Of a DNA stretch of 64,000 nt, positions 5,646-50,943 are shown piece after piece. A model generated the notes under the pieces. That model was not told the DNA's origin. It made no database searches and saw only the letters and a program-made list of their open reading frames with translations. Source of the stretch: Escherichia phage DCP80. Both the position numbers and the translations under genes were made by a program. The first letter of the stretch is position 1. Each line of letters starts with the position of its first letter. The stretch is taken from sequence record PQ671644.1; one strand, 5' to 3'.

Positions 5646-5676
5646 TTTGTTGTCCTCATCAGTAGTTGATGAGATG

Positions 5677-5706: not shown

Positions 5707-5712
5707 TACTTT

Positions 5713-7949: not shown

Positions 7950-8245
7950 GCCAATTTTACTCGCTTAACATATAAAGTATCTAAAACTAATTTCAATTCT
8001 CGTGCGTGTTCTTCAGTAGGAAAAACAGTTTTTGTTTCCCGCTTATCAAACCACCATTTTCTGGGAATATACCGTGTTTCAATACGTCCCATGCGTAAAT
8101 AGCGGTTTGTAGTATATGAATAGTTGGCAAGTTCATACTCTGCGCCCGGTTTTGTGGTGTATAAGGTAACCTTTCCATCATACTCCAATGGGCGTTCAAA
8201 ACCATCTTTATCTTTGTGGACCAGCACATATGCGTAGTACATCAC
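7946..8245 (-). CDS. hypothetical protein (99 aa; dda.1 position)
   Basis: ORF overlapping dda start by 4 nt; 93% identical to duplicate at 50944..51243. Confidence 0.5.
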   Translation of the reverse strand: MMYYAYVLVHKDKDGFERPLEYDGKVTLYTTKPGAEYELANYSYTTNRYLRMGRIETRYIPRKWWFDKRETKTVFPTEEHARELKLVLDTLYVKRVKLA

Positions 8246-8246
8246 A

Positions 8247-8990
8247 TTAACCTCTAATCAGTTTAAAAATTGACGCGTTCAAAGGTAGACCTTTTTTCAG
8301 TTTAAGGCGGTCAATGAATGACAACTTATCTAAACGCTCCAGACCTTGAATAATTTTATCATACATATCGTAACGCGTTTCAGCGTCAGATGATTTCATT
8401 TTCAGACGCCAGTCAGGACCACCCATAACCATTTTCAGCCCGCGTTGACTAGTTCCGATGGAAGCCATTTGTCCATGGATACGAGCCTTGACTGCAATCA
8501 CAGAAGGGGTGGTATCTTTAGCGCCACTTTTATAAAGCTCTTTTAAATGTTTTTGACGCTTCTTGATTCCACGTTCGGTATCTTTAATATTTTTAACAAT
8601 TTTGCGAATTTTATAATAGTCAGCAGGAGTTACTTTAAAACTATTGGGCATCTTAGAACCGCCATTAATACGCACCGCCAAACGAGTCTGCGCACGTTTA
8701 AGTTCATCAAGAGATAAATCAGCACGTAAACCGTTGTACTTAGTTTTGACAGGGATAACATTGCCTTCAATATAACCTATATCATTGTTAAAGCGTTCAA
8801 AGGAAACTTTATCTTGAGTTGAATTTTCATCAAAACGTTCACCAGAATACGCACAGAATTCTTGTTTCAAAAGATTGGCGATATACTTACTAGACAGATT
8901 GAAATCCTTGTTACGACGTTTTGCAGACGTTTTGGTATGCTCGCGACGTTTGTAAACTTTCAATTCAAACTCTTCTTTTGACATATTCAT
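8247..8990 (-). CDS. hypothetical protein (247 aa) at the srd position
   Basis: ORF with own early promoter; conserved N-terminal block (AKRR.KDFNL, CAYSGE, ERFNNDIGYI.GNVIPV) and C-terminus shared with the diverged copy at 50196..50942. Confidence 0.55.
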   Translation of the reverse strand: MNMSKEEFELKVYKRREHTKTSAKRRNKDFNLSSKYIANLLKQEFCAYSGERFDENSTQDKVSFERFNNDIGYIEGNVIPVKTKYNGLRADLSLDELKRAQTRLAVRINGGSKMPNSFKVTPADYYKIRKIVKNIKDTERGIKKRQKHLKELYKSGAKDTTPSVIAVKARIHGQMASIGTSQRGLKMVMGGPDWRLKMKSSDAETRYDMYDKIIQGLERLDKLSFIDRLKLKKGLPLNASIFKLIRG

Positions 8991-9036
8991 GATATTTTTC
9001 TCATCTTACGGACGATTGAAAACTCAGTATGGATTC

Positions 9037-9065
9037 ATTATACACTATACATCTTTTATGTACAC
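9037..9065 (-). promoter_or_regulatory. T4-type early promoter
   Basis: Minus strand GTGTAC-17nt-TATAAT followed by GATTCATACTGAGTT leader. Confidence 0.5.
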
Positions 9066-9146
9066 TACTTTTTAGCCTTTAACGCTTTTATTTTTACTGT
9101 GTATAATGGTTCTAAGGTCTTTGGCCTTTTGTTAACCCAGAATACT

Positions 9147-9659
9147 TCAGTAAGAAAGAACGGAAAGATTCCATAATTTATAGTCTTCCCATCTATAAAT
9201 GCTCTCAATAGAGTCCACGCGTAGCGTAGTTCCCGCAGGGAACATCATCTCATCTTCATCATTTACTAATTGTAAGTTTGAAGAACGAGTTATTTCAGGA
9301 TATAGTCCGTTGAACTCTTCAGGAGGTGCCGCACAAATCATTTTAAAAATCGCTTCCTGATAATCAAATGCGAATGGTGCATCATTAATACAGAAAATAT
9401 TTTTGGTTCCATAGAAGCTAAAGGAAGCAAAGTTACGCGCAACACTGAAATCTTTGGAGAAACTCATTACACGGTCAAACTCAATCGTAGCACCAACACA
9501 TCCTACGGTTTCAAGATATGCCAAAGTTTTCTTAGAAATCCCGCGATATAACTTACCAGGCACAGCAGAAGTCAAATTCTTACGAATAATTTTGTTCAAA
9601 GTTTCCTGGATAGTGTCTGGCTTATTTTCCATGCACTGCCAGAGTGTACTCTGTTCCAA
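9147..9659 (-). CDS. ADP-ribosyltransferase-like protein (ModA/ModB-like, R-S-E class)
   Basis: 170 aa; candidate catalytic triad pattern: Arg in LYRGISKK, SFSKDFS (S-x-S), and EDE (ExE) near the C-terminus; position upstream of srd/dda as modA/modB in T4. Confidence 0.5.
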   Translation of the reverse strand: MEQSTLWQCMENKPDTIQETLNKIIRKNLTSAVPGKLYRGISKKTLAYLETVGCVGATIEFDRVMSFSKDFSVARNFASFSFYGTKNIFCINDAPFAFDYQEAIFKMICAAPPEEFNGLYPEITRSSNLQLVNDEDEMMFPAGTTLRVDSIESIYRWEDYKLWNLSVLSY

Positions 9660-9759
9660 CTCAGAGTAAATTTCATCAATTTCAATCTGGGTATTTTCGC
9701 GAAAATATTCACATTTAACTGCATTGATGTACTCTGCTAATTGGTGACTTGCGTACAGC

Positions 9760-9800
9760 NNNNNNNNNNNNNNNNNNNNNNNNNNNNNNNNNNNNNNNNN
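9760..9800. other. N-run (scaffold junction)
   Basis: 41 n. Confidence 0.95.
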
Positions 9801-15030: not shown

Positions 15031-15080
15031 NNNNNNNNNNNNNNNNNNNNNNNNNNNNNNNNNNNNNNNNNNNNNNNNNN
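15031..15080. other. N-run (scaffold junction)
   Basis: 50 n; gene 62 and regA expected after 44 in T4 are absent, so the flanks are not contiguous. Confidence 0.95.
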
Positions 15081-19255: not shown

Positions 19256-19493
19256 CCTTGATACATGATTCAGCCATATGGATTAATGCCTCTGGGGTAT
19301 CATCTTCCATTACATTAAAGCTAAATTCTACGGCCCAATCGGTGACTACATAGACTTTGATAAGTTGACCAGTTTCCCGGTCAGTGATAGCTTCAAACCA
19401 ATACTTAATAGTATTCGGTTGATTATCGTCGTCAACCACATCACATTCGCGGATATGCTCAAGCCCCGCTTCATTAAAATCATAAAGTCTCAT
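19230..19493 (-). CDS. hypothetical protein (87 aa)
   Basis: ORF between 47 and 46, overlapping both ends. Confidence 0.45.
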   Translation of the reverse strand: MRLYDFNEAGLEHIRECDVVDDDNQPNTIKYWFEAITDRETGQLIKVYVVTDWAVEFSFNVMEDDTPEALIHMAESCIKDAYYDEDF

Positions 19494-20285
19494 GGTTGCA
19501 CCTCAAGATATAATTTGTTGGCCAATGCTTTGAGAGCTTTTGATTCTTTCTCATTGGCGTCAGGTAATGCATCGATATATTCTGCCATCATATCTGTTAA
19601 GCGTTTTATGTCTAACTCTTCATCAGAGTCTGACGTATCAACACTGTTATCAACCTTATTGACAACACGCAATTCGTGCACACGCTTTTCTAATTCAGAT
19701 TCGAACTTGGTCAGGTCTTTATCGACTTTTTCTACAATAACACGGACTGATAAGTCTTTGAAGTCGTCGTAGTTAATAGTTTCGTTTGGATAAAAAATCT
19801 TCCGATGCCAGGTGGTTTCATTCGGAATAAATTTCATCTCTTCGGTTTCTGTATCAAATTCCCAGAATCCGCGCGGGTCATTCTCATCACCTGCTGTTAA
19901 TGTCCATGGCGTTCCTATGTACTTAACGTTCGCAGCTTCTGAAATGGTATGGAAGTGCCCAGACCAAACTTGCTTGTACTTCTTAAGGAAATCAGGCTCA
20001 AGTCCGTGGGATTTCAATCCTTTATAGAAATAAAACCCGGTTAATTCCCAGTGACCGATGCAATATTCGGCACCAGAAGTTTTGATGTGTTGATGAATGT
20101 CAGTCGCGTTCTCGTCACACATCCATGGAATCATATCAATCTGACAACCGTCAAAATCAACAGTCGTTGGCTTATCGTAGATTTTAACATGGTCATACTT
20201 ATTCAGGAGTTCAGTGATAGCATTAGGATGAATCTTATTCTTCAGATTCATGTCATGGTTCCCGACTATCGTGTGCATAGTAATT
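19490..20285 (-). CDS. 47: recombination endonuclease subunit gp47 (Mre11/SbcD-like), N-terminal ~75 aa missing at N-run
   Basis: Matches T4 gp47 (HTIVGNHD, FDGC.ID.IPWMC, GHWEL.GFYFYKG, SGHFHT, GTPWTLTAGDENDPRGFW). Confidence 0.9.
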
Positions 20286-20300
20286 NNNNNNNNNNNNNNN
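20286..20300. other. N-run (scaffold junction)
   Basis: 15 n; gp47 N-terminus is replaced by an unrelated holin fragment after the gap. Confidence 0.95.
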
Positions 20301-20383
20301 TTCCCGGTCGCATTATCTTTAAAAATTCTATCAAGAAGTCCAAAAAGTAGGTCTGATAATGAAAATCCTACTTTTGGTTCCAT
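20301..20383 (-). CDS. t: holin t, N-terminal 27 codons (truncated by N-run)
   Basis: MEPKVGFSLSDLLFGLLDRIFKDNATG matches T4 holin N-terminus (..SFSPSDILFGVLDRLFKDNATG); AAGGAG RBS. Confidence 0.75.
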
Positions 20384-20402
20384 ACTTTTCTCCTTTAAAG
20401 AT

Positions 20403-20410
20403 ATTTATAA
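20403..20410 (-). promoter_or_regulatory. late promoter TATAAATA for gene t
   Basis: Exact TATAAATA on the minus strand 20 nt upstream of the t ATG. Confidence 0.6.
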
Positions 20411-20419
20411 TATGGGGTA

Positions 20420-21220
20420 TTATACTCTGCTTCCGTATATCGTACCAACGTTTTGCCAGTTAGGAGCATTACCGGCGACTGCTGCCCCAGCATTACCACC
20501 AGCACCAACTTTAAGCACTTTACCTCCATCATTCCAAGCGTTTTGGCCTTTAGCACCGACATTCCCACCAGCACCTGAATGCGCGTTACCATAATTATAA
20601 CCACCACCTGCTCCGGTAAGAGATGCCGCCCCACCGGAGTATCCTCCGCCACCAGCTGCACCAAATGGTCTACCGCCGCCAGCGCCTATATCTTGCCAGT
20701 TAGCACCTGAATGGGGTCTATACGCGATGCCACCACCACCGCCACCACCACCGGCTATAGCGCCATTATTACGGATACGAAGTTTAGTTCCGGCATTGTT
20801 TTGTATGGCTATTCCGCCGGCCTCACCATTACCATTGCCGTCGCTATGGGTCCAGCCTCCTCGGCCTCCTCGACCATAAACGGTAACACCGCTATTAATA
20901 TTAAGTTGTATATAAGCATTAGGTAAGTTGCTAGGGAATTCCAGACATGGGTTTCCGCGGTTGTTAGATACCAAGTCACCAGTAATTGTAATAACAACAG
21001 GCGCACTGCCTTGTGCTCTCATCCAGTTTATAAGGGTGTTTTTATCATAGTTATGATTAGCCCCTATAGATAAGTAAATTTCTTTTGATTGGTTAGCCAT
21101 CGAACCCATCCAACCCGGGACAGCTACACGAACATCTCGCATTGCTGCATCCATCCAACGTTGGCCAGTTTCGTCAACTGCAGATTGTCCGACCCAACCA
21201 GGTAATCCTACAATTGCCAT
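20420..21220 (-). CDS. 38: gp38 tail-fiber adhesin, T2/T6 type (glycine-rich motifs)
   Basis: 266 aa; conserved N-terminal attachment domain (VG.PGW.G.SAV.ETGQRWM) and C-terminal polyglycine stretches (GGGGGGGG) separating variable segments, as in T2-type gp38 adhesins. Confidence 0.8.
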   Translation of the reverse strand: MAIVGLPGWVGQSAVDETGQRWMDAAMRDVRVAVPGWMGSMANQSKEIYLSIGANHNYDKNTLINWMRAQGSAPVVITITGDLVSNNRGNPCLEFPSNLPNAYIQLNINSGVTVYGRGGRGGWTHSDGNGNGEAGGIAIQNNAGTKLRIRNNGAIAGGGGGGGGIAYRPHSGANWQDIGAGGGRPFGAAGGGGYSGGAASLTGAGGGYNYGNAHSGAGGNVGAKGQNAWNDGGKVLKVGAGGNAGAAVAGNAPNWQNVGTIYGSRV

Positions 21221-21251
21221 AATAAATCCTTAGGGCCCGAAGGCCCTTTTC

Positions 21252-24200
21252 TTAATTTAATTTAGCTTCAAGTTCTCTAACTTTAGCCGACAGGGTTTTA
21301 ACTGCTTCAATTAACAGAGCAACTTGTGCCTGAGTCGAAACTGTCAGAACCATATTTTCCTGCGAATCTAAAGACTCATGCACCGCTTCAGGTAATACTT
21401 CTTTAAGATTCTGAGCAATAACACCTGCTTCAGTTTGAACCGCTTCACCACCGATATATTCAGCTTTATCATAGATTAAACCGTCGAGCTGTTCAACCTT
21501 TTCAAGAGCATTTTCAATAGGCCTGAAGTTTGATTTCAAACGAATGTCAGAACGAATATAAACGTTTGGAGCATTTATATTTTTATATGAGTACAAATCA
21601 CCGTTTTGGAAACGGAAAGTCTGTACGCCATTCGCATATATGTCTAATAATCCATCGCCATTTTGCTTAATACCGGTATCACTATCGCCAATTGTTATAC
21701 TACTTCCACCGAGTGAGTTAGTTGTATTAACACCAAAGGCACTTGTTTGTGGCATCTGTACTTTACCCGGGCAATCTAAAATGCCATCCATTGTAAATCG
21801 CCATCTTGCTTGTTGGCCGTTAGCGTTATCTCCGCGAATACGAATAATACCTTCTCGCCAACCAGCTGTGGTACCAGAGCCGACCCATCCAAATTCAAAG
21901 GTTTGACGATATCCAGAGGAACCATAGTTGCTGTATGCACCTACAATAGGATAATAACTACCTGAATTAGATAAATCACCATGGTCTGCCATAAAGGTGA
22001 TTTTAGATTTCATTGTATCTGAGGTATCTCCCCAACCAGAGGCACCGCGCCAACCTGCAACCACACGAGACGAGATATTGCCTAAACTAGTATTACCACT
22101 GGTGACATTAAGGCCGCCCGCCACGTTCAGACCACCACCAGTAATATTCAGACCACTGCCCATGCCTACACGACCATCAGCCATGTTGATAGAGAAAGGT
22201 CTTAAGCCATTCCACAACCCGTCAGTTGCATTCGGGTTTTCTTCCGTGTTTTTATCCGTAACTAAAATATGAAAATTTTCACCGTCGTTTCTAATCAAAG
22301 CGGCATTAGAACCTATATCATTACCGCTGGATTTGATACGCATACCTTTTTGGTTATTGGTAACGTATTCACCACGTGTAACAATATCCGATTCGCCGGC
22401 AGCAAACATTCCGTCAATGTTGTTCAGCATTCTTACAGATTTACCTACAACATGACCTTCAGGTAATGTTTCTACCAAAGGCTGGACACCGCTATTAATA
22501 CCCACTACGGTTACTTTACTATTGCTACTGCATGTATATTCTACCGCCAAAGAATTAGAATACCCACCTAAGTAAACGTAAATATCATAGGTATCTTCGC
22601 TTGTATTAACAGAAGCAATCTGAGAAATAGCTTCAGAAGTTCTATTCCACAGCGTAGCATTAAGGCCTTTAGGGTTATTATTGCCGGTTCTAAGGACTAT
22701 TTCGGCTATTGAAGCCTGACCATAACTTTTAAAATTAAATCCAGAACCACCTGATATTTTAAAGGATGCTGTACCCGTCGCTTGTGGAATTTCTACAGTA
22801 GCAAATTTATACCAACCTGTAGTAGCGCCGCCAGCCCAACCGCCTGTGTTAACTTTACGGTCTAACGTTGTGTTCAGGTTTTTAAAGTTATCTAATGCAG
22901 TGCTGCCTGTAATATTACCGTCAGGACCAATACGAACATCGGAACCAATTTTAAGTGCCTTGGTTATATCAACAGTATCAGAGTTTAATGCAATACCATG
23001 GGAGTATGTATAGTTATGTAAACGAACAACGTTGCCGCCGTCGCCAATACCGAGATACCATTTTGTAACATCTGCTTTACGTCCTTGGATAAAGTTGGAT
23101 GATGCCTGGGATGAAGCATTTACCACAATGGCATCAGAATCCATATTAACACGCAGTCTACAGTCGGTCTGGACAAATTTACTTACGTTGTCTACTGTAA
23201 AAAGTGGACCATACCCGGCACTTTTATTCCCCATTATAACCGTGCCGGTGGCTAAATTGATAGATAGCGGACGAAGGTCACTTATTCCACCATTTTCTCC
23301 AGCGTTCTGAAGAGTAGGAATAAGATGGAATGAAGCAGAAGAACCTGTTTCTGAACGACGGAAAATCATACCATATTCGGCATTCCAAATTCTTAATGCA
23401 TCAGCGGTACCGCCTATTTTAACTTGACCGTTAAAAGTGGCGCCACCATTTATATTCAATCCGTTTGCTGAAGTGATACTACCTTCCGATGAAATACTAC
23501 CAGCAGTAGTCAATCCACCATTTACACGGAATTGAATAGAACCTACGGTTTGGGAACTTGTGGGAGCAACGCGTTGTGAATAAAAATGCCAACCCTGTCC
23601 ATCGCCTAATTCAAATACAGTTTCTCTGCTTTTATTAGTGTCATCCTCAAATGCGTTACCCCATACTTTCATGGTCACATAGCTTTTGTTCTGACCCGGG
23701 CGGGTGCCTGCGTTCCAAACAATCGTTTTTGTGCCATTGATAGTGGAAGAAGCGCCGAACTTTATACCTTTATTGTTGTTGTTAGTATTAAAAAATAATT
23801 CGTTATCTAATTTAACTGGTTGGGTCGAGGAAACTGTGCCATCGGCTCTAAGATTCAGTTCATTAACCCCGGTTTTAATATTCAAAATACCTGGTTCAAT
23901 AATCATGCCTTCTGCCATAGAAATGGCTACACGACCTGTACCACGGAAATAATGATAAAGTTTACCATTAGAATTATAACCTAAATGGGTTTGGCCATCC
24001 CCAGAGTTATTACCGTCTATTTCGGTTCTAATAGAAACCATAGAAGAGTTCTGGCCAGGCAGAAGCCAAGTAAGACCTTGGTCATTACTACGGCCAAATA
24101 TGGTTTTACTAGTCCCACGGAAGCCGTCGGAAGTAATAGATGCAACGGAATAACCTCCACCAACTAAATCATAAACACCTTGCTTAATATATTTCAGACC

Positions 24201-25004
24201 GGTTACAGTGTCACCGAGAACAAGATACTTATCGCCCATTACACCGACGTTACCATAATCACTAGACGGGAAACCCGTAGTGAATGTACCTAATGCAAGG
24301 CTATTACGGCCTGCCATTCGTCCGTCATTACGAATGCCATATTGTTTAGATGATGGAGTATTACCTGTCCACCATGACATTTCATCAGCTTGACCTGTCT
24401 GGGCGGTGCAAAGCTCATGCCACATAGTGCCACCAGACTTGGCGCGAACTTTACGAAGATAGTTTACACCATTCGTTTCGCCTGTGCCTGGGTATACATA
24501 ATTAACTAATGAATCTGTATCATATACACCAAAGGCTTTGCCACCGTGGATAACTGTATCGACTGCAATGCGTTTAGTTACTAATGAATCTGATGCTAAA
24601 ATACGGTTGGCCTGAAATTCACCACCATTTATAGAACGGAAATAGAATTCACTATTAGCAGTACCTTCTGTCCCCTGTTTAATCCTAATGCGTAATTCAC
24701 CAGCATTTGTAGTTTGAGGACGTGCATATATAACACCGCGTTCACTGCCATCAGCATTTTCAAACCATAAATGGGCATTTGATGTTGTATCGTTTGAAGC
24801 TCTTGAATAAAACGAGCCTTGCAACGCTCTAAAAGTTTGAGCCGAAATACTAGTGCCTGCTGTAATCGACCCGCTTGTAGAAAAGTTTCCAAAATTGTTT
24901 AATGGGCCGTTAATGCGTAAAGTTCCATTAATAGTTACATCCCCGTCAACCTGCCCACCTTTAGCAAAGCCCAAATCAATAATCTGTCCCTGGTCTGACT
25001 TAGT
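21252..25004 (-). CDS. 37: long tail fiber distal subunit gp37, T2-type with C-terminal intramolecular chaperone domain; N-terminal ~40 aa lost in N-run
   Basis: N-terminal region near-identical to T4 gp37 ([24 protein letters not shown]); C-terminus ...[19 protein letters not shown]...[15 protein letters not shown]... resembles self-cleaving intramolecular chaperone domains of tail fibres. Confidence 0.85.
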
Positions 25005-25040
25005 NNNNNNNNNNNNNNNNNNNNNNNNNNNNNNNNNNNN
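25005..25040. other. N-run (scaffold junction)
   Basis: 36 n. Confidence 0.95.
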
Positions 25041-25056
25041 GCGGAAAGGGGGTGTT

Positions 25057-25224
25057 ATGAAAACATTCAAAGATTTTATCAACGAAGATATGGTTGCAGG
25101 TGATGCAGGTGGAAACCCAACTAATATCACAACAGGTACCACTTCCGGGGCAGTTGTCAATAAAGGCCCTGAACAAATCCCATCAAAAAAGCGTAAGAAC
25201 AAAGACGATAAACCTACAGTATAA
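25057..25224 (+). CDS. hypothetical protein (55 aa)
   Basis: ATG at 25057; short ORF upstream of primase followed by a UUCG hairpin at 25228-25241. Confidence 0.4.
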   Translation: MKTFKDFINEDMVAGDAGGNPTNITTGTTSGAVVNKGPEQIPSKKRKNKDDKPTV

Positions 25225-25256
25225 TGGTCCTTCGGGGCCATTGAAATGAGGAAACT

Positions 25257-26285
25257 ATGTCATATATTGATAAAGAATTTGCAGTCAGAGCTTTATCGTA
25301 TCAACCACGTTATAGAGAAGTCACCGGGAGCACATTTAAAGCAAACTGCAGATGTAAAGTTTGTGGCGACTCCCAGAAAGATTCACATAAAGCCAGATTC
25401 TGGGCGTATACTAATCCGGCTGATGGCGCGGTTTACGTGAAATGTTTTAACTGTGACTACTCCACGCATATAAGCAAATACATAAAAGAGTTTGAGCCGG
25501 ATTTGCACCGGGAATATATGGTTGAGAAGTACAAGGAGAACGCCTTCGGGCGACAACGCACTGAAGTTGTCGAAACTCCGAAAGAACCAGAAAAAACTCC
25601 GGTTATCGAACAGCTTGCTTTTTGTGAAAGACTCGATACTTTACCAGAAGCACATCCGATAGTTAAGTATGTAAAAAGTCGATGTATTCCAAGCAATGTT
25701 TGGAACCGGTTATGGTTTACAAACCAATGGCCCGCATTAGTTAACTCCGTCAATCCTGGGACGTATAAGAATGAAACGAATGAACCACGCTTGGTTATTC
25801 CTATCTTCAACGGCAAAAAAGAAATCGAATCTTTCCAAGGACGAGCTCTTCGCAAAGATGCACCACAAAAATATATCACAATCAAAGCTCACCCAGAAGC
25901 TTCCAAAGTCTATGGCGTAGACAAGATTGATGAGCGTAAACGCGTATGGGTAATGGAAGGTCCAATTGATAGTTTGTTTATCCCTAACAGCATTGCGATA
26001 ACTGGTGGCACATTGTCATTGGAAGCAGTTCCTTATGCTGAAACCAGAGTATGGGTAATGGACAACGAGCCAAGACATCCGGATACGATTAAACGTATGA
26101 AGAAGCTCGTTGAAGCTGGCGAAGCTGTTATGTTCTGGGACAATGCACCATGGCATACGAAAGACATAAATGAGATGGTTAAATCAGAAGGGGCAACCCC
26201 TGAACAAATCGAATCATATATGGCCGATAACGTTGCTCAAGGATTGATGGCGAGAATGCGACTTTCGAAGTACGCAAAAGTTTAG
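25257..26285 (+). CDS. 61: DNA primase gp61
   Basis: 342 aa (as T4 gp61); zinc ribbon CxxCGDS...CxNC, LKEFEPDL.REY, EPRLVIPI, FQGRAL.KDAPQKYITI, MAKMRLSKYAK. Confidence 0.93.
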   Translation: MSYIDKEFAVRALSYQPRYREVTGSTFKANCRCKVCGDSQKDSHKARFWAYTNPADGAVYVKCFNCDYSTHISKYIKEFEPDLHREYMVEKYKENAFGRQRTEVVETPKEPEKTPVIEQLAFCERLDTLPEAHPIVKYVKSRCIPSNVWNRLWFTNQWPALVNSVNPGTYKNETNEPRLVIPIFNGKKEIESFQGRALRKDAPQKYITIKAHPEASKVYGVDKIDERKRVWVMEGPIDSLFIPNSIAITGGTLSLEAVPYAETRVWVMDNEPRHPDTIKRMKKLVEAGEAVMFWDNAPWHTKDINEMVKSEGATPEQIESYMADNVAQGLMARMRLSKYAKV

Positions 26286-26393
26286 GAAGGGATTCCGGTA
26301 AAGTAACCGATGATGGAATGAATATGTTCTATTGTGACCTGGGGTAAGTGCACCCCTTGTGTTGCAGCGATAGGCACAACCAGTAAGTTCCAC

Positions 26394-26591
26394 CTATATA
26401 AGGCCGATTAATGCTAGTGAAACATCTACAACTGATTCGAGCGCGACGACTGGCAATATAACACCATGTGCCAATGCAATAGGGGCAACAATGAAATTCC
26501 AGAGTAGAACAAAACAGAGTATCGAAAGGACCAGAATCGTTCGCTTACGACTGCCTTTGATGGCTTGAATTAGACTAGATAGTTTGAGCAT
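26394..26591 (-). CDS. small membrane protein (65 aa), convergent to gene 61
   Basis: AAGGAGG RBS; hydrophobic segments predicted; conserved in duplicate at 59152..59349. Confidence 0.45.
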   Translation of the reverse strand: MLKLSSLIQAIKGSRKRTILVLSILCFVLLWNFIVAPIALAHGVILPVVALESVVDVSLALIGLI

Positions 26592-26613
26592 ACATCCTCC
26601 TTTCTTGTATTTA

Positions 26614-26637
26614 TGCTTTAAACCAATATGATATAAT
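26614..26637 (+). promoter_or_regulatory. middle promoter (MotA box TGCTTTA + -10 TATAAT) for gene 56
   Basis: ATGCTTTA then 11 nt then TATAAT upstream of the gene 56 RBS. Confidence 0.5.
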
Positions 26638-26675
26638 TAACATACAAACAATATGAATTGATAAGGAAAAATATA

Positions 26676-27194
26676 ATGGCTCATTTTAACGAGTGTTCTC
26701 AACTGATTGCTGGTGTTGATAAAGCGCAAGATGCGTATAATGATGTCCTAAAAGGCAATGATGACCCTCTGCAGATTATGCTTGATATGCAGAAATCTTT
26801 GCAGGTTCGTCTGGCTACAGAAAAACCAGAATATAACGCACATCCAGATGAATTGGCAACCGCAGGCGATGTTGTTGCATGGCTTCGTAACCAGAAAGAT
26901 TATGTCGACGACGAATTCCGTGAACTTCTGACTTCGCTCGGTGGCATGTCTAATGGTGAGAAAGCCGCATCCAGTTGCTGGAAGCCGTGGAAAGCGCAAC
27001 ATGCTGAATATCGTAATCGTCGTATTGATGAACTGTCTCCTGAAGACCAGCTCGAAATTAAATTCGAAATGATTGATATTCTGCACTTCGTTCTGAATAT
27101 GTTTCAAGGTCTGGGTCTTTCTGCTGAAGAAATCTTTAAACTGTATTACTTGAAAAATGCCGAGAACTTTGCTCGCCAAGACCGAGGTTATTAA
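26676..27194 (+). CDS. 56: dCTP pyrophosphatase gp56 (MazG-like)
   Basis: Start at MAHFNE (AAGGA RBS); matches T4 gp56 (VDKAQ, DPLQ.MLDMQ, ETAGDVV.W.R.QKD, DDEFRELLTSLG, SPEDQLEIKFE, EEIFKLYYLKN.ENFARQDRGY). Confidence 0.92.
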   Translation: MAHFNECSQLIAGVDKAQDAYNDVLKGNDDPLQIMLDMQKSLQVRLATEKPEYNAHPDELATAGDVVAWLRNQKDYVDDEFRELLTSLGGMSNGEKAASSCWKPWKAQHAEYRNRRIDELSPEDQLEIKFEMIDILHFVLNMFQGLGLSAEEIFKLYYLKNAENFARQDRGY

Positions 27195-27475
27195 TGGCTC
27201 GTTTAAATAAACGTCAACTTAAGAAAGCTCGTAAGAAGCATATTAATGCTATAATTGAAAACGCTAATGTTGAAATCTTTGTAGAACTCTTAGCCAATCA
27301 ACTAAAAAATTTATCTAAACAAGAAATTGATATGAATACTGAAAATGCTAAAAATGTAATCGAAACTCATAATGTTTTTGCTCAAGCTACAGCCGAATAC
27401 ATTGCCAATCCTACTGCTGAAAATCTAGCTAAAATGACTGAAGCCAATAAAGCAGTCCAAGCCGCCAAATTGTAA
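27194..27475 (+). CDS. hypothetical protein (93 aa)
   Basis: ORF overlapping the gene 56 stop (ATG/TAA overlap); helical, basic N-terminus. Confidence 0.5.
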   Translation: MARLNKRQLKKARKKHINAIIENANVEIFVELLANQLKNLSKQEIDMNTENAKNVIETHNVFAQATAEYIANPTAENLAKMTEANKAVQAAKL

Positions 27476-27516
27476 GTTATAAATACACCTGTAATTAAAC
27501 AACAAAGGAGTTTATT

Positions 27517-27750
27517 ATGGGTGGTTTCGTTAATATCAAAACCTTCACGCATCCAGCTGGTGAAGGTAAAGAAGTTAAAGGCGTTGAAGTATCAGTTCCG
27601 TTTGAAATCTATTCGAACGAGCACCGTATTGCTGATGCGCACTATCAGACTTTCCCTTCGGCCGTTGCAGCATATACTACTGTAGTGACTGATGCAGCCG
27701 ATTGGCGAACTAAGAACGCGGCAATGTTTACGCCTACCCCAGTAGTTTAA
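27517..27750 (+). CDS. soc: small outer capsid protein Soc
   Basis: 77 aa; matches T4 Soc (VNIKTF, AHYQTFPS, AAY.TV); AAGGAG RBS. Confidence 0.8.
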   Translation: MGGFVNIKTFTHPAGEGKEVKGVEVSVPFEIYSNEHRIADAHYQTFPSAVAAYTTVVTDAADWRTKNAAMFTPTPVV

Positions 27751-27754
27751 TTAT

Positions 27755-27780
27755 AGGGAACCTTCGGGTTCCCTTTTTTG
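27755..27780 (+). terminator. rho-independent terminator after soc
   Basis: GGGAACC-UUCG-GGUUCCC hairpin followed by UUUUUU. Confidence 0.65.
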
Positions 27781-27827
27781 CTTTTAATAGAGATGGTATA
27801 ATTATTTCAACTACAGAGGAGAATACT

Positions 27828-28025
27828 ATGTTAAACCGTTGGATTAAACCAAATAAAACTTTAGATGAAGTTATTGCCCATGATGTGCATTTTAAGTATG
27901 GTCTGGGTGTGTTTGACGAGGTTGTCGTGCACTCGTTCATGATGCACGATGATGATTCTTTAGAATTCAATATTGAAATCCGTTATGATGATGGTCAAGT
28001 TGAATTTAAACGAGGTTTCCTATGA
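27828..28025 (+). CDS. hypothetical protein (65 aa)
   Basis: ORF with GAGGAG RBS after a -10 TATAAT and CAACTAC leader. Confidence 0.45.
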   Translation: MLNRWIKPNKTLDEVIAHDVHFKYGLGVFDEVVVHSFMMHDDDSLEFNIEIRYDDGQVEFKRGFL

Positions 28026-28381
28026 TTAGTTGGCTCAAGAATTTATTCAAGACTAAACCTGGTGAAGGGGTGGTTCCTGTTAGCCTGCCAGATGTTAAAC
28101 TAAGAGAATATGTTTACATGGGCGATGGTATGATGGAAGAAGTTCGTCGCCGCCCAGAAAAAGCCGGTAATGTCGGACCAGGCGCATTGCCATTGAATTC
28201 GAAAAAGTTAAAAGAGCATCTGGATTCAAGACGTTCTACAAGCCATGTCGATACTACACCGCATATTGATATGACTCCGATTGTGGTTACTGCGGCCGCT
28301 GTCAGTTCGTGGACTGGTGATTCGTCTTATTCCTCCTATGATTCAGGAAGCTGCGATTCATCTTCCAGCTCGTGTGATTAA
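28022..28381 (+). CDS. hypothetical protein (118 aa), Ser/Cys-rich C-terminus
   Basis: ORF overlapping upstream stop; ends in S/C-rich tail. Confidence 0.5.
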   Translation: MISWLKNLFKTKPGEGVVPVSLPDVKLREYVYMGDGMMEEVRRRPEKAGNVGPGALPLNSKKLKEHLDSRRSTSHVDTTPHIDMTPIVVTAAAVSSWTGDSSYSSYDSGSCDSSSSSCD

Positions 28382-28576
28382 ATGAGAATTACAAGTTGGC
28401 TTAAAGATTGGTTGGTTACCCCGGGGATTGATGATTCCTGGGTGGCCAGAGCCGAGGAAGAAATGCAGCGCGAAGCTGAAGAATGGGCCGCCGCAAGCGT
28501 CAAAGATATGCAGGAAAAGAAGACCGAACGAGCTGTGCTTAAACTGATGCGTGATATCTACGGAGATAAATCATGA
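28382..28576 (+). CDS. hypothetical protein (64 aa)
   Basis: ATG directly after the preceding stop; acidic/helical. Confidence 0.45.
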
Positions 28577-28722
28577 CACAAGAAGAAGCTGAACGTCAGG
28601 CAAAAGAAGCACTGGATTTGCTTTTGAAAATTGGCAGTAAAATGATGGAAGAAAATGAAAAGTACATCAAGGAAAATAAAGTTCCTGATGGTCCATTAGT
28701 TGGTAAGAGGAAAACATTATGA
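28573..28722 (+). CDS. hypothetical small protein (49 aa)
   Basis: Short ORF read from sequence ([17 protein letters not shown]...); fills the gap between neighbours with start/stop overlaps; below ORF-track cutoff. Confidence 0.3.
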
Positions 28723-29207
28723 AAGTATATGAATTAGAATTCTATGTCCGTGATTCTGCTGGGCAAACACGACCTTACGATGCAACAGCCTGTCTTATCT
28801 TTGCATATAATGGCATGGATTCGGTTACTGAGTTGGAAACAAAATTAATGAACCTGACGATGCCAGAAAATGTCATGATGAAGGTATTTCATAACAAAAA
28901 CGTTAATGTGGCTGAAGGGTGTCCGTTTACTGTTTCCGAAGCTCTACACATTAAAGGCTATCGTCACCCGGACCCTTATGCAGAAGGTACTGCGGATATC
29001 TTCTATAAAGATACCGATAGAATTTCAGAAGAACGCCTTAAAGGTCGCACATATCTGATTTCCACTACCGACGACCTTGCTGAAGTTGAACGTCAGATTT
29101 GGAAGCACTTTGATATCGGTCTGCGCTTTACTTTAACAGAAGAAGCTATTCAAGATACTAAAATGCGTGCTCGTATGTATGGTTACGGTCCGATTGGTGG
29201 TTACTAA
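28719..29207 (+). CDS. hypothetical protein (162 aa; mrh position and size)
   Basis: T4 has mrh (161 aa) downstream of soc; assignment by position and length only. Confidence 0.45.
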
Positions 29208-29383
29208 TGGATTTATTTGAACTTTTTGAAGAGCCTAAAGCTCCCACAGAAGCCCGTGTGGACCTAGTTGACGAACTTGATGCGATTATACAGAAGCACG
29301 GTTTTAGTCTCCCATTGGAAGTTCTGCGCGACCTGGCCTCATATTACGACGACCCACCTCCATGGGCACCATGGAAACAGTAG
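29207..29383 (+). CDS. hypothetical small protein (58 aa)
   Basis: Short ORF ([13 protein letters not shown]...) with start overlapping upstream stop; below ORF-track cutoff. Confidence 0.3.
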   Translation: MDLFELFEEPKAPTEARVDLVDELDAIIQKHGFSLPLEVLRDLASYYDDPPPWAPWKQ

Positions 29384-29439
29384 TTTACTTACTCCCCTCC
29401 TAATGACATAATGACCTTTCTTACAACAGAGAGGTCATT

Positions 29440-29505
29440 ATGAACATCATCAAATCTGATACCGAACCCAACCAGTTAAAATTTAGTGAAATGGAGATAG
29501 CTTCA
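29440..29505 (+). CDS. hypothetical protein, N-terminal 22 codons (truncated by N-run)
   Basis: ATG 29440 with GAGAGG RBS embedded in a 10-bp inverted repeat. Confidence 0.35.
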
Positions 29506-29540
29506 NNNNNNNNNNNNNNNNNNNNNNNNNNNNNNNNNNN
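29506..29540. other. N-run (scaffold junction)
   Basis: 35 n. Confidence 0.95.
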
Positions 29541-37899: not shown

Positions 37900-37940
37900 N
37901 NNNNNNNNNNNNNNNNNNNNNNNNNNNNNNNNNNNNNNNN
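37900..37940. other. N-run (scaffold junction)
   Basis: 41 n. Confidence 0.95.
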
Positions 37941-38023
37941 TTCCCGGTCGCATTATCTTTAAAAATTCTATCAAGAAGTCCAAAAAGTAGGTCTGATAAT
38001 GAAAATCCTACTTTTGGTTCCAT
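37941..38023 (-). CDS. t: holin t, N-terminal 27 codons (second copy, truncated by N-run)
   Basis: Identical to 20301..20383. Confidence 0.75.
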
Positions 38024-38042
38024 ACTTTTCTCCTTTAAAGAT

Positions 38043-38050
38043 ATTTATAA
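38043..38050 (-). promoter_or_regulatory. late promoter TATAAATA for gene t
   Basis: Identical to 20403..20410. Confidence 0.6.
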
Positions 38051-38063
38051 TGCTTTTGCGCTA

Positions 38064-38615
38064 CTATTTTTTAAACCATCTTTTGAAGAATGATTTTTTC
38101 TCTTTTTCTGGCCAAGCCGGGAATTCACCACCGAGGTGTTCGTGTTTTTCTAAAAGAGCAAAGAAACGTTTAAGATTCTGGTGATAGAATTTTTCTTTCT
38201 TATCGGCGACTGAGGCTTCAACCATATTACTTAATACCTGGAATTCTTTATACAAATCGTCAATTTTTCGATTGCGAATCATTACTCGTTTATATGTTTC
38301 ATCTTCTTTCCAGCCATCATCTGTCCATATATCAAACTCGCCAGGTTTATCGAAAGTTATACCGACTGGGCTTCCTATGTCATTTATTAAGATTTCTTCT
38401 TTATTAAAAGTCCATGCACGTTTGCCTCGATGGTCTTCTTCATAAATCCAATCTTGAATGCGTTCGTCAAATACAACGGCATACCCTTCTTTAGGTTCTA
38501 AAGGTTTTTTAGCTGTTGAATGGGCCGGAAGGCCAAGGCCTTTAATGGGTTTATAATTTTCTTCTTTGTAGAATTCTTTTGTGTCAAAATAAAAATGATA
38601 AATTTTCATATTCAA
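38064..38615 (-). CDS. 38: gp38, T4 type (tail-fiber assembly chaperone, not a virion adhesin)
   Basis: 183 aa (as T4 gp38); near-identical to T4 gp38 (KIYH.YFDTKEFYKEENYKP.KGLGLPAHST.KKPLEPKEGYAVVFDER.QDWIYEEDHRGKRAWTFNKEEI). Confidence 0.9.
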   Translation of the reverse strand: MNMKIYHFYFDTKEFYKEENYKPIKGLGLPAHSTAKKPLEPKEGYAVVFDERIQDWIYEEDHRGKRAWTFNKEEILINDIGSPVGITFDKPGEFDIWTDDGWKEDETYKRVMIRNRKIDDLYKEFQVLSNMVEASVADKKEKFYHQNLKRFFALLEKHEHLGGEFPAWPEKEKKSFFKRWFKK

Positions 38616-38636
38616 AAGGGGCCGAAGCCCCTCTCC

Positions 38637-41600
38637 TTATGCTAAACGAACGATATAGTTAAAAGCAATGTTTTTAACCGTGTTTTCTGTATTACCTGTA
38701 CTATTTACGGTAATGGTATGCCCATGTGAACCAATCGCTACAGTATGAGTGTGAGCACCGATACCTACCGTATGCGTGTGAGCACCAATACCTACAGTAT
38801 GAGCGTGGTTACCTGTGGCACTTGTGGTCCCTGACCAACTATGAGTATGAGCACCGTCTGAAGAAGTTTTGGCTATATTCGACCCTGCAGTAGCACCGCT
38901 CACGGTTCCAGTGATTTTAGCGTTGGCGTTTGCACCTACACTATTATATCCGTCATAGAATATGTTATTGGGTACGCCGGCTTGCATCTGAGGGCCTGAA
39001 CGCGCGTGTTGGTGTGCTCCGGCTGAACTGGTAGTACCACTCACTGTATGGTTATGGTTACCGGTGGTATTACTGGTCTTAGTACCATAATCAAAGCTTG
39101 AAGATGTTTTAGTGCCATAATCAAAGCTTGATGTGGTTTTAGTACCCAAGTCAGTACTCGAAGCAGATGCGCCATGGTTATGAGACTTAATACCATCAGC
39201 TTCTGCACTCAACACTGCGCGGCCACTTGGTTTACCCTTGATAGTTTGTCCACGCATATCAGGAATAGTACCAGAAGGATATGCAACAGCAAGCTTAGGA
39301 TAAGCACCTGTATCAAAGGTCTGACCTTCCATCAAAGCATAACCATTAGGAGGAGTATCCGTTGGCCATGGAATTGGGGCTCCAATAGGATAACTTGAAA
39401 CAATATCAGTTTTAAGTGATTCAATTGTACTGTTTAAGTTAGCAAAGTTACCAGAGCCACCGGTGATATTACCATCAGTTCCTAAAGTTGTGTTGCCTAC
39501 AATAATTTTACCAGGTAAGCGGAAGTCACCGGTGCGGCGGAATTCCCAACTTAAATCAGTTCCGGTAGTACTATTGCCCTGGTGATAATGAACGCGGAAG
39601 TCTCCTTGAGAAATTAAGGTGCCAATAGAATAAGTGCTATCACCATTTACATACCGTTGTTTAACAATAGGAATGTATTCAGAAGTAGCAGTACGCTCTA
39701 TATTCATATAAATTGGAGCCCTGACATCTGCGTAATTCTGAGATGCAAACGAACCAGCTCCTGCTGGGCGTACCGTATCAGTACATTCGGCCTCAATATA
39801 TGTCGACTGCCCCAATTTCATTCTAAAATTGGCATTAATGCGAGAGTTACTGTTTATCGTAGTTAAAGCATTATTTTGATCTACTATAAAAGAATCTCTT
39901 CCTAATCCAACCATACCATCGTTTAATCCTATTCTCACAGGTCTCAAAGAGCTGTGAATGTCTCCACTTTCGCCTTCATTTTGATTGGTTGGAAGAATAT
40001 AAAAGTTACTTTCTGAACGACGGAAAATAGCGCCATATTCAGCATTCCAAATTCTTAATGCATCTGCTGTTCCACCAATTTTTACTTGTCCGGTAATAGA
40101 AGAACCACCTTGGACAAACAAACCGTTAGACATAGTAACATTGCCACCAAAAGAACCTGTACCGGAGGCACTTATATTTCCAAGGCCTATGATATGGTCT
40201 GTTTCAACAGCTCCGTTAAATTTAAAGTTAACTGGACCTACTGTTTGACCTGACGCAGGATTAGTACGTTGAGCGTAGAAATAATAACCTTGTGAATCTG
40301 AAACTTCGAATACAGTTTCTCTATTACCGCCACCTGTATTAAATGAATTACCCCACGCTTTAATAGATATATAGTTTTTATTCTGTCCTGCGCGAGTACC
40401 AGCGCCCCACAGTATAGTTTTAGTGCCATCTAATGATGTAGGTGCATCAAGTTGAATACCGTCAGCTCTAGCCCCGGTAAGAAGTACCCCGTTATCAAAT
40501 TTAATTCTTTGAATAGAAGAAATAGTGCCGTCAGCATAAAGCTGTACATTATTAGCGCCGGTTACCAGTTTAAGAATACCTGGGTTAAGTTCCATGCCTT
40601 CTTGGGTGTTAATATTGGTTTGACCTCTACCGCGGAAATAGTGCGACATTTTTCCGCCAGAGTTATAACCAATATGCGTCTGACCATCGCCAGCTGTATT
40701 CCCGTCAGCCTGAGTTTGAGCTGATAAAAATGCAGCATTGGTTCCAGGCATAATCCATGTGGTGCCTTGGTCTTCTGAACGACCAAATAAACCTTTACGA
40801 GTACTACGGAAACTATCTGGAGTAATAGAAGCAACTGAATTCCCTGAACCAACTAAATCATAAACACCGGTTTTTTTGTATGACAGCCCCGTCCCGTTAT
40901 CGCCTAGAGCTAAATAAACACCGAATCCTAAAGCGGCACCATTACCATAGTCGCTTGACGGGTATCCTTCAGTCACAGTACCAATGGCCAAGCTATTGCG
41001 AACAATCATTCTGCCGTCATTACGAATACCATATAGTTTATATGTTGGTGTATTACCAGACCACCAAGAAACCTCATCAGCTTGGCCTAATTGGGCCGTA
41101 CAAATTTCATGATACATTGTACCACCAGACTTGGCGCGAACTTTACGAAGATAGTTTACACCATTCGTTTCGCCTGTGCCTGGGTATGTATATTTAACTA
41201 ATGAATCAGTGTCATATACACCAAATGCTTTGGCATCGTGAATAACTGTATCAGCTGCAATGCGTTTTGTTAATAACGCATCCGAAGCTAAAATACGGTT
41301 AGCCTGAAATTCACCGCCGTTTATAGAACGGAAATAGAATTCACTATTAGCAGTGCCTTCTGTCCCCTGTTTAAGCCTAATGCGTAATTCACCAGCATTT
41401 GTAGTTTGAGGGCGAGTATATATAACACCACGTTCAGTGCCATCGGCATTTTCAAACCAAAGGTGGGCATTTGACGTATCGTTTGTTGCTCTTGAATAAA
41501 ACGAACCCTGTAATGCTCTAAAAGTTTGAGCCGAAATACTCGTGCCTGCTGTAATCGACCCGCTTGTGGAAAAGTTTCCAAAATTGTTTAATGGGCCATT

Positions 41601-41810
41601 AATGCGTAAAGTTCCAGTAATAGTTACATCGCCATCAACTTGTCCACCTTTTGCAAAGCCCAAATCAATAATCTGTCCCTGGTCGGACTTGGTAAAAATA
41701 GTGCGGTCACGCAAGTTAATAGCCAGTTCGCCTTCATCTAACTGAGCTGCAGTAGGCTTGGCTCCTGGTGTTTTACTTCTTTTAAATTGTATCGATTTTA
41801 AAGTAGCCAT
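38637..41810 (-). CDS. 37: long tail fiber distal subunit gp37, T4 type (His-x-His C-terminal tip)
   Basis: 1057 aa; matches T4 gp37 from MATLK.IQFKRSK to the [48 protein letters not shown]-terminus. Confidence 0.95.
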
Positions 41811-41818
41811 AATGCCTC

Positions 41819-42023
41819 TTAATAATATCCAAAATCTTCAGATGTACCTCTAAGAACAACCTGGTCAATACGAGGAACGTGTTCGTTCAATGTTCCTGGG
41901 TTCCTAGATATGAAATTCGGGGCTGAAAGAACACCAGCCATAGATTGTATGTTACTATTATTTATTTGGACCTGTTTTGCGTTATCCACATCACTTAATC
42001 CAACTTGTGCTTTTGTCGGGGTA
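41819..42023 (-). CDS. 36: tail fiber protein gp36, C-terminal fragment
   Basis: Stop-free frame from the N-run to a stop 8 nt upstream of the gene 37 start; assignment by position. Confidence 0.6.
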
Positions 42024-50942: not shown

Positions 50943-50943
50943 T

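Follow-up and report, generated by a model that had tools for sequence, protein, structure and literature searches.

Since the structure of the S16 tail fiber tip was solved, a gp37 that is processed by its intramolecular chaperone (IMC) and capped by a polyglycine adhesin has been textbook knowledge for T2-like phages. In the S16 gp37-gp38 tip complex (PDB 6F45), the C terminus of gp37 is an IMC that cleaves itself and bears an S-D-x-R-x-K motif, and gp38 combines a tryptophan-bearing attachment domain, a beta-helix, and a polyglycine sandwich. The locus described here resembles that complex in each of these respects; it differs in that the identity is ~42% and that the hypervariable loops (HVS) of S16, an OmpC binder, are unrelated (21%). 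T2, IME341, IME08, and fDHCT2 share the gene order gp36-gp37-gp38-t. The T4 type of cassette occupies the same locus between the same flanks (gp36 upstream, holin t downstream); however, its gp37, unlike the one reported here, carries a Collar/needle receptor-binding tip and lacks an IMC, and its gp38, an unrelated protein of 183 aa, acts as a chaperone and is not incorporated into the virion.

The cassette under study lies in a 64,000-nucleotide stretch of the Escherichia phage DCP80 record PQ671644.1, which is referred to as the window. It is very probably a T2/S16-type module that encodes the distal long tail fiber and the adhesin of a Dhakavirus-like T-even phage, and its architecture is that of established T2/S16 biology.

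Organization of the locus

A single assembly contig (20301..25004) contains the tail fiber tip cassette, with gp37 (21252..25004), gp38 (20420..21220), and the beginning of holin t (27 codons, 20301..20383, up to the contig boundary at 20301), all on the minus strand. The gp38 gene is directly downstream of the IMC-ending gp37 and upstream of holin t, and the order gp37-gp38-t is also found in six reference phages (IME341, fDHCT2, T2, LHE83, RB32, and T6). Both long open reading frames (ORFs) of the preliminary description were recovered on the minus strand at the coordinates that it gave; position 25004, however, is the end of the contig and not the start of the gene. Bases 25005..25040 are N, and the alignment of the frame to IME341 gp37 begins only at residue 40 of the latter, so that gp37 lacks its first 39 codons; an apparent continuation of the ORF to 25241 runs across N padding and was rejected as an artifact.

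Every run of N in the window stops where a 60-base line of the sequence stops, which indicates that the window is a concatenation of approximately 15 contigs and, therefore, that gp47 (19490..20383) and the primase gene (25257..26285) are not real neighbors of the cassette. The start of the "gp47" ORF at 20383 is not real, since its reading frame also crosses N padding; the assembly has joined part of gp47 in silico to the start of holin t, and holin t is the true downstream neighbor of gp38. The first 23 residues of holin t (MEPKVGFSLSDLLFGLLDRIFKD) are identical to those of the IME341 holin. A match to the T4 late-promoter consensus, TATAAATA (20402..20409, minus strand), is located 19 bases upstream of its start codon; the window holds 16 such matches versus 4.85 expected by chance. 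An RNA hairpin, AGGGCC-UUCG-GGCCCU (21232..21247, minus strand; -12.7 kcal/mol by RNAfold), lies between the gp37 stop codon and the gp38 Shine-Dalgarno sequence, and a GC-rich hairpin is present at the equivalent position in IME341, fDHCT2, T2, LHE83, and RB32. Plus-strand ORFs within the region (60 to 114 aa, Pro/Ala-rich) were treated as the antisense reading of glycine codons.

The gp37 distal subunit and its C-terminal chaperone domain

The available part of gp37, the distal subunit of the long tail fiber, comprises 1,250 codons plus a stop codon; the 5' end of the gene is missing beyond the contig boundary. It aligns to residues 40 to 1289 of IME341 gp37 with 83.5% identity; its closest relative, from fDHCT2, is 84% identical, and T2 gp37 is 57.6% identical over the full length. 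Pfam matches were to gp37_trimer, Gp34_trimer, and Peptidase_S74, and searches of NCBIfam with gp37, gp38, and the T4-type gp38 gave no matches. As previously described, the N-terminal region is T4-like: the shaft region common to T4-type gp37 (23139..25004, minus strand; fragment residues 1 to 622) has 63% identity to T4 gp37 residues 40 to 662 over 622 residues. Beyond fragment residue 622, sequence alignment detected no significant similarity to T4 gp37. When the tip and IMC are compared with those of T2, IME341, and fDHCT2 in blocks of 50 residues, identity is 68 to 98% and reaches at least 90% in most blocks, whereas the central shaft (residues ~400 to 550) is only 40 to 68% identical to that of T2/Dhakavirus phages.

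The C terminus is an IMC, or Peptidase_S74, domain (PF13884) of 99 aa (residues 1152 to 1250; 21255..21551, minus strand). Residues 1152 to 1209 of 1250 match the complete Pfam profile (positions 1 to 58 of 58; E = 1e-15; 58.2 bits, against a curated cutoff of 22 bits), and this match, together with the S-D-x-R-L-K Ser/Lys motif, supports the chaperone domain, of a type predicted to cleave itself, that had been proposed here from peptides, including SDIRLKSNF, that do fall within the 99 C-terminal residues of the long ORF. For the last 160 residues of gp37, the AF2 monomer model reached a pLDDT of only 54.7, too low to confirm the IMC fold by structure; the IMC domain is an obligate trimer. 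The SDIRLK motif can be aligned with S^SDRRIKK, the experimentally determined cleavage site of S16 gp37, and with SDLRAK of MYRF. Five positions of the motif (S, D, R, L, and K) are invariant in 41 gp37 homologues. Ser1152 and Lys1157 are five residues apart (S-D-x-x-x-K), as the catalytic dyad motif requires. The assignment of this Ser/Lys dyad is established (MEROPS S74; Schulz et al. 2010, cited in PMC7917993). By analogy with the cleavage sites of S16 and the fPS phages (PMC7917993), autocleavage is predicted to occur between R1151 and S1152, with Ser1152 and Lys1157 as the dyad; the residues that precede the site differ between the two systems (NVYIR^S here and DLNVS^S in S16). Other Peptidase_S74 IMCs, such as those of endosialidase tailspikes, T5 pb1, and MYRF, are alike in their Pfam match, their Ser-Lys motif, and their C-terminal position after a trimeric fiber. 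Unlike in those proteins, cleavage here would also create the surface on which a second protein, the adhesin, docks, as in S16 (PMC7917993).

That docking surface is predicted to be the distal tip of gp37 immediately before the cleavage site (residues 1096 to 1151; 21552..21719, minus strand), which can be aligned with chain 6f45_A, the tip of S16 gp37, and is 92 to 98% identical to the tips of T2, IME341, and fDHCT2.

Domains and fold of gp38

The gp38 gene is complete (20420..21220) and encodes 266 aa. Residues 1 to 42 (21095..21220, minus strand) match the Gp38_N attachment domain (PF21721; E = 5.8e-16; 58.6 bits versus a cutoff of 25), and residues 47 to 266 match the entire GP38 profile (PF05268; positions 1 to 218 of 218; E = 3.6e-67; 226.8 bits versus a cutoff of 25). 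All three tryptophans of the N-terminal domain (W9, W22, and W37), whose role in attachment has been described for this family (PMC7917993), align to S16 gp38; an N-terminal gp37-attachment domain is indeed present. Residues 1 to 46 are 100% identical to those of IME341, and the N-terminal domain is 80% identical to that of T2; the conservation of both this domain and the gp37 tip is consistent with a matched docking pair.

The protein is glycine-rich, as had been noted: glycine makes up 34% of residues 116 to 266, where consecutive glycines (at least two) occur in eleven places, once as a run of eight (G8). The glycine-rich motifs (GRMs) are invariant across 48 homologues, and the HVS are variable. 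Sequence matches in the PDB were to S16 gp38 (6f45_D, 6e-42) and to PP01 (9v85, 1.7e-40). In an AF2 model with a pLDDT of 88.5, gp38 consists of an attachment domain, a beta-helix, and a polyglycine sandwich, and with Foldseek this model superposed on the crystal structures of PP01 gp38 (9v85; TM, 0.87; E = 1e-22) and S16 gp38 (6f45_D; TM, 0.76/0.81; E = 2.9e-22). The designation of gp38 as T2 type also holds, since it is 66% identical to T2 gp38; the closest named gp38 has ~70% identity.

Taken in order, the proposed assembly would begin with trimerization of gp37, aided by its own C-terminal IMC, after which the Ser1152/Lys1157 dyad would cut the R1151-S1152 bond and release a 99-residue piece. 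The exposed hydrophobic tip of gp37 would then be capped by one gp38 (a 3:1 gp37:gp38 assembly), plugged in by way of W9, W22, and W37 in its N-terminal domain, and gp38 would display four hypervariable loops on its polyglycine sandwich to a host outer membrane protein.

Hypervariable loops and the predicted receptor

All four loops, on the minus strand like the gene itself, group with the OmpA lineage when they are compared with adhesins of known receptor, a comparison that the preliminary description had suggested. HVS1 (residues 120 to 134; 20819..20863; RGGWTHSDGNGNGEA) has 66% identity to OmpA-type adhesins versus 26% to T2/IME341; HVS2 (residues 165 to 180; 20681..20728; IAYRPHSGANWQDIGA) has 81 to 87% identity to RB32, FL08, AV119, and LHE83 versus 12%; HVS3 (residues 188 to 217; 20570..20659) has 73 to 80% versus 35%; and HVS4 (residues 224 to 240; 20501..20551; KGQNAWNDGGKVLKVGA) has 88% versus 23 to 29%. 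The HVS2 motif YR(P/V)HSGANW and the HVS4 motif GQNAW.DGGKVLKVGAGG are common to this gp38 and to RB32, FL08, AV119, and LHE83. Together, HVS1 to HVS4 are 77 to 81% identical to those of these four adhesins, which are OmpA dependent by experiment, versus only 20 to 28% to those of T6 (Tsx), T2 (FadL/OmpF), and PP01 and S16 (OmpC). The best matches to the receptor-binding domain (RBD) in the phage database all belonged to the OmpA "type 1" group (75 to 78%). Of nine OmpA contacts predicted previously (R165, V166, H167, S168, G169, A170, R181, D217, and R262 in FL08 numbering; PMC12032242), seven are identical here; the other two are V166, replaced by P as in RB32, and D217, replaced by N. In HVS2, R168, H170, S171, G172, and A173 match the predicted OmpA-contacting residues of FL08 and AV119 (PMC12032242).

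In RB32, swapping of the HVS block transfers specificity: when the full RB32 block was moved into RB5, OmpA/LPS specificity moved with it (PMC3157838). FL08 and AV119, which carry "type 1" adhesins, need OmpA experimentally (PMC12032242), and LHE83 is OmpA dependent, yet ~50% of its adsorption is kept on BL21 without OmpA (PMC10987938). This residual adsorption and the LPS sensitivity of RB32 (PMC3157838) make a coreceptor likely. Based on the identity of its loops to those of OmpA-dependent adhesins rather than of other types, the primary receptor of this adhesin is probably E. coli OmpA, possibly with a contribution from LPS as in RB32.

A different receptor (Tsx, OmpC, OmpF, FadL, LPS, or a new one) is a less likely reading that nevertheless deserves weight; here, loop substitutions and the T2-type framework would have retuned binding. 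No adhesin with a known receptor has loops closer than ~20% divergence, D217 has changed to N, and relative to the OmpA binders the framework is 54 to 58% identical and the N-terminal domain 41 to 59% identical. Specificity in this family can change with only a few loop substitutions in gp38, as in the host-range mutants of Ox2. In addition, type 1 OmpA adhesins are phylogenetically near Tsx binders (PMC12032242), and in the chimeric adhesins Mi and PST (Trojet et al.) the receptor does not track the identity of a single HVS. However, all four HVS here, rather than a single one, are of the OmpA lineage, the reference adhesins for Tsx, OmpC, OmpF, and FadL have only 20 to 28% HVS identity, and the RB32 block carried its specificity into RB5.

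Chimeric ancestry of gp38

The framework of gp38 is 90% identical to the T2/Dhakavirus type (T2, IME341, IME08, and fDHCT2), whereas all four HVS are replaced relative to those phages (26 to 28% identity). Judged from these alignments, gp38 is a natural chimera, in which a T2/Dhakavirus attachment domain and beta-helix/polyglycine framework carry loops of the RB32/FL08/AV119/LHE83 lineage. The adhesins of RB32, FL08, and AV119 pair with the differently tipped gp37 of Tequatrovirus phages.

It can be envisioned that the chimera is a natural "loop graft," in which loop sets move between scaffolds as a unit, and that it may bind an OmpA variant or an unassigned receptor, but we regard this as rather doubtful. 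The ~20% divergence of the graft and the D217-to-N change suggest that an OmpA variant, or a receptor new to gp38 adhesins, might be bound; the mosaic has at least four exchange points, located at glycine-rich motifs.

That the interleaved mosaic is instead an assembly artifact, produced by misjoining of reads from two gp38 alleles at glycine-codon repeats, is very improbable. The window does mix at least two related phages, and contigs break where sequence is shared; however, a cluster at 90% identity contains nine distinct sequences with the same chimeric arrangement, 4 to 30 residues from the present gp38, including copies on contigs of 173,746 bp and 167,943 bp. An independent contig from SRR31021174 is 98 to 100% identical across all junctions and 86 to 95% identical in the 5' part, and loops could not have come from the other fiber cassette of the window, since that cassette lacks a gp38 of the adhesin type. 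The exact gp38 sequence was not found in the contig index, where a 98% relative is present on a 999-bp contig.

Alternative cassettes at one locus

A T4-type cassette is present at 38064..41810, on contig 37941..42023, with its gp37 at 38637..41810. The two cassettes had been said to differ completely; this is true of their gp38 genes and of the distal halves of gp37, which are unrelated, but the first ~600 residues of gp37 are homologous, and the first ~150 residues present are 92 to 98% identical. They had also been placed in one scaffold, which is not the case: the window consists of N-padded contigs from at least two coassembled Dhakavirus-like phages. In the second cassette, holin t has the same late-promoter motif in front of it (38042..38049), and the two contigs do not differ over the ~108 nt that extend from this shared promoter region to the end of the contig. 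Elsewhere in the window, further regions occur in duplicate with 95 to 97% identity, and both cassette versions are on Dhakavirus-like backbones. The identical holin t ends, the duplicated loci, and the shared type of backbone thus indicate that the cassettes are alternative alleles of one locus in at least two phages; two fiber cassettes in one phage genome are excluded by the same holin ends and duplications.

The idea that the gp38 under study is a T4-style assembly chaperone absent from the virion, with gp37 itself binding the receptor, can be dismissed for practical purposes, since, although several database homologues are labeled "distal long tail fiber assembly catalyst," this gp38 has no similarity to T4 gp38 (best BLASTP E, 0.58) and fully matches the adhesin family and fold, and its gp37 ends in an IMC in place of the T4 Collar/needle tip.

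Conclusions

We place high confidence in the account as a whole, namely, a T2/S16-type cassette in which gp37 is predicted to be cleaved and capped by a chimeric gp38 that would recognize OmpA. Its value is modest: it provides a sequence-based prediction of OmpA as the receptor for an adhesin allele that is seen in several metagenomic phage genomes and in none of the named phages. The separate ancestry of framework and loops represents a natural modularity of scaffold and loops, the property that is used to retarget phages by gp38 engineering. Finally, T2-type and T4-type host-range cassettes occur at one locus in co-occurring, nearly identical Dhakavirus-like backbones.

Assembly of the window and the two fiber loci

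The window contains 14 runs of N, each 10 to 58 bases long (4511-4520, 9760-9800, 15031-15080, 20286-20300, 25005-25040, 29506-29540, 37900-37940, 42024-42080, 46131-46160, 49973-50000, 53697-53720, 57105-57140, 60515-60560, and 63923-63980). For all 14, the end position minus 20 is divisible by 60, which places it at a 60-base line boundary with an offset of 20. Since all of these runs stop at FASTA line ends, we conclude that the window is not a true scaffold or continuous genome but consists of approximately 15 contigs of 3.4 to 8.4 kb that were padded to line ends and concatenated; open reading frames and gene neighborhoods that span N runs are therefore artifacts. Three frames were rejected on these grounds: an extension of gp37 to 25241, read across the padding; 19490-20383 (minus strand), in which the start of holin t is fused to a gp47 fragment without its own N terminus; and 24853-25224 (plus strand), in which antisense gp37 runs into a small gene located upstream of the primase.

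The T2-type locus lies on the minus strand of contig 20301..25004. The gp37 open frame of 1250 codons, to which gp37 residue numbers below refer, is open at the contig edge (position 25004) and terminates with a stop at 21252. Its alignment to IME341 gp37 begins at residue 40 of that protein, and 39 codons are therefore missing; the gene placed at 21252..25004 in the preliminary description is present, but 25004 is not its start. A 31-base spacer separates gp37 from gp38 (266 codons; 20420..21220). Past the gp37 stop and ahead of the gp38 ribosome-binding site lies a GC-rich hairpin whose loop is a UUCG tetraloop (21232-21247, minus strand; RNAfold, -12.7 kcal/mol), and IME341, fDHCT2, T2, LHE83, and RB32 have an equivalent GC-rich hairpin there as well. 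The lack of a T run sets the hairpin apart from typical terminators, and an effect on mRNA stability or on translational coupling is possible. Of holin t (minus strand), only the initial 27 codons are on the contig, which ends there. Directly upstream of holin t in each fiber contig is one late-promoter-like motif, TATAAATA (20402..20409 and 38042-38049, both minus strand); this T4 late-promoter consensus occurs at 16 sites across the window, compared with 4.85 expected from shuffles, and none of 100 shuffles reached 16.

The second fiber cassette, on contig 37941..42023, is of the T4 type. It encodes a gp37 of 1057 residues with a Collar domain and no C-terminal intramolecular chaperone (IMC) (38637..41810) and a gp38 chaperone of 183 residues that is 88% identical to T4 gp38 (38064..38615) and for which no Pfam or NCBIfam match was found. 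This contig further includes the last part of gp36 and the beginning of holin t; Dhakavirus phages 04086 and C6 are 96.8% and 90.9% identical to it, respectively. The two cassettes had been thought to differ completely; however, their gp37 proteins are 92 to 98% identical over the first 150 residues present, and the last ~108 nucleotides of the two contigs, a stretch that extends across the start of holin t to the contig end, are identical. Two further contig pairs duplicate the same regions (4521-9759 and 50001-53696, 95.5% nucleotide identity; 25041-29505 and 57141-60514, 96.6%), and both copies of the primase region have Dhakavirus-like phages 212, P896, and PSD2001 as their best matches (97 to 98%). 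The identical holin t ends and the duplicated pairs led us to reject a single genome with two fiber cassettes. The pattern is read most simply as an assembly bubble: two or more closely related Dhakavirus-like phages from one sample were coassembled, one carrying a T2-type and the other a T4-type host range locus. On this reading, the second cassette does not share a genome with the first but is an alternative allele of the same locus from a coassembled phage.

gp37 and its C-terminal chaperone

As had been proposed, the N-terminal region of gp37 is T4-like (63% identity between residues 1-622 and T4 gp37 residues 40-662), and beyond residue 622 sequence comparison detected no similarity to T4 gp37. 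T2 gp37 is 57.6% identical to the entire fragment, and the closest matches in a search among 5.8 billion proteins were gp37 of fDHCT2 (84%) and IME08 (82%). The predicted chaperone-type C terminus is borne out by a Pfam match to the full Peptidase_S74 profile at residues 1152-1209 (E 1e-15), accompanied by matches to gp37_trimer (626-705) and Gp34_trimer; a domain combination that includes PF13884 is common to nearly all of the best 120 gp37 homologues listed. Those defining features of Peptidase_S74 that were open to test were all found in the gp37 C terminus; the IMC fold was outside that set, the monomer model of this region being of poor quality. T2 gp37 reportedly loses about 120 C-terminal residues, a finding attributed to Drexler, Riede and Henning in 1986.

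The motif SDIRLK opens the final 99 residues of gp37. In HMMER alignments it lines up with VS^SDRRIKK of S16 and with the MYRF motif SDLRAK, and its S, D, R, L, and K are invariant across 41 aligned gp37 homologues. In S16, autocleavage between two serines removes the final 113 residues of gp37, the IMC, and exposes the docking surface for gp38 (PMC7917993). We infer that the window gp37 is autocleaved at NVYIR^SDIRLKS, compared with DVYIR^SDGRLKI at the homologous site of the fPS phages (PMC7917993).

gp38 combines a T2-type framework with OmpA-group loops

The gp38 protein carries the expected N-terminal gp37 attachment domain (Gp38_N, residues 1-42), followed by GP38 at 47-266 (Pfam, E 3.6e-67), and every defining feature of the T2/S16 adhesin family that was open to test was found in it. 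The solved relatives by sequence are gp38 of S16 (6f45_D, E 6e-42) and of PP01 (9v85, E 1.7e-40). An AlphaFold2 model (pLDDT 88.5, pTM 0.82) superposes on the PP01 receptor-binding domain (RBD) (TM 0.87, normalized to that domain) and on S16 gp38 (TM 0.76/0.81); a PDB fold search with the model returned no further fold below an E value of 3. Similarity to T4 gp38 was undetectable by sequence comparison.

Overall, gp38 is just 69 to 70% identical to gp38 of the phages with the nearest gp37 and 62 to 64% identical to Tequatrovirus adhesins such as those of RB32 and fFiEco06. Residues 1-46 are 100% identical to IME341, compared with 41 to 59% for the OmpA group (RB32, FL08, AV119, and LHE83). The framework (beta-helix strands, glycine-rich motifs, and C-terminal strand) is 90% identical to T2 and IME341, 54 to 58% to the OmpA group, and 56 to 61% to other receptor types. 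In the four hypervariable segments, HVS1-4, which are encoded at 20501..20863, identity is 77 to 81% to the OmpA group, 26 to 28% to T2 (FadL/OmpF) and IME341, 20% to T6 (Tsx), and 21 to 26% to S16 and PP01 (OmpC). Judged by sequence, the adhesin is a chimera of a T2/Dhakavirus-type framework and OmpA-group loops. In the gene, affiliation changes near nucleotides 355, 420, 480, and 720, positions at or close to the glycine-rich motifs, where Trojet et al. placed natural and experimental gp38 crossovers (PMC3157838).

Given that the window assembly mixes phages, a mis-join during assembly had to be considered as the source of this mosaic. However, the 90%-identity cluster around P0001 comprises nine distinct sequences with the same chimeric arrangement, which differ from the window gp38 at 4 to 30 positions and two of which come from contigs the size of a complete genome (167,943 and 173,746 bp). 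The relative L004 (Logan SRR31021174, 999-bp contig) is 98 to 100% identical over every junction and 86 to 95% identical at the nucleotide level in the 5' third. Among named phages in the August 2025 phage collection, RBD identity to the window gp38 does not exceed 78%. We conclude that the chimeric allele is real and recurrent.

The four closest loop donors are all OmpA dependent by experiment. RB32 requires OmpA and is LPS sensitive, and moving its four-HVS block into RB5 carried that specificity along (PMC3157838); FL08 and AV119 require OmpA (PMC12032242); and the Dhakavirus LHE83 uses OmpA but still adsorbs to some extent to the BL21 deletion strain (PMC10987938). Seven of the nine OmpA contacts named for FL08 and AV119 (PMC12032242) are identical in the window gp38, the exceptions being V166, which is P as in RB32, and D217, which is N. 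On these grounds, OmpA is the predicted primary receptor, with moderate confidence, possibly with a contribution from LPS.

Discussion

The preliminary description is supported, with two amendments, one to the gene boundary and one to what the "scaffold" stands for. The mechanism proposed for gp37 and gp38 is that already published for S16 and T2. The only new elements are the allele itself, with a gp37 that is 84% identical to its nearest relative and a gp38 that reaches at most 72% identity to proteins outside the 90% cluster to which it belongs, the interleaved scaffold/loop mosaic of gp38, and the receptor prediction.

In 50-residue blocks, identity to T2, IME341, and fDHCT2 is 68 to 98% across the gp37 tip and IMC (residues 1001-1250), reaching at least 90% in two-thirds of the blocks, and falls to 40 to 68% in the central shaft (residues 400-550). 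It is the gp38 region required to fit the gp37 tip that has remained T2/Dhakavirus-like. A conserved tip and a conserved gp38 N terminus are the pattern expected if attachment constrains the N terminus while the receptor loops are swapped. The chimeric allele recurs in several public assemblies (L004 and cluster members P0241-P0248), in which the receptor domain shows no or almost no difference and the N-terminal third is more variable, a distribution that suggests that the two halves of gp38, one bearing the loops and the other mediating attachment, recombine independently.
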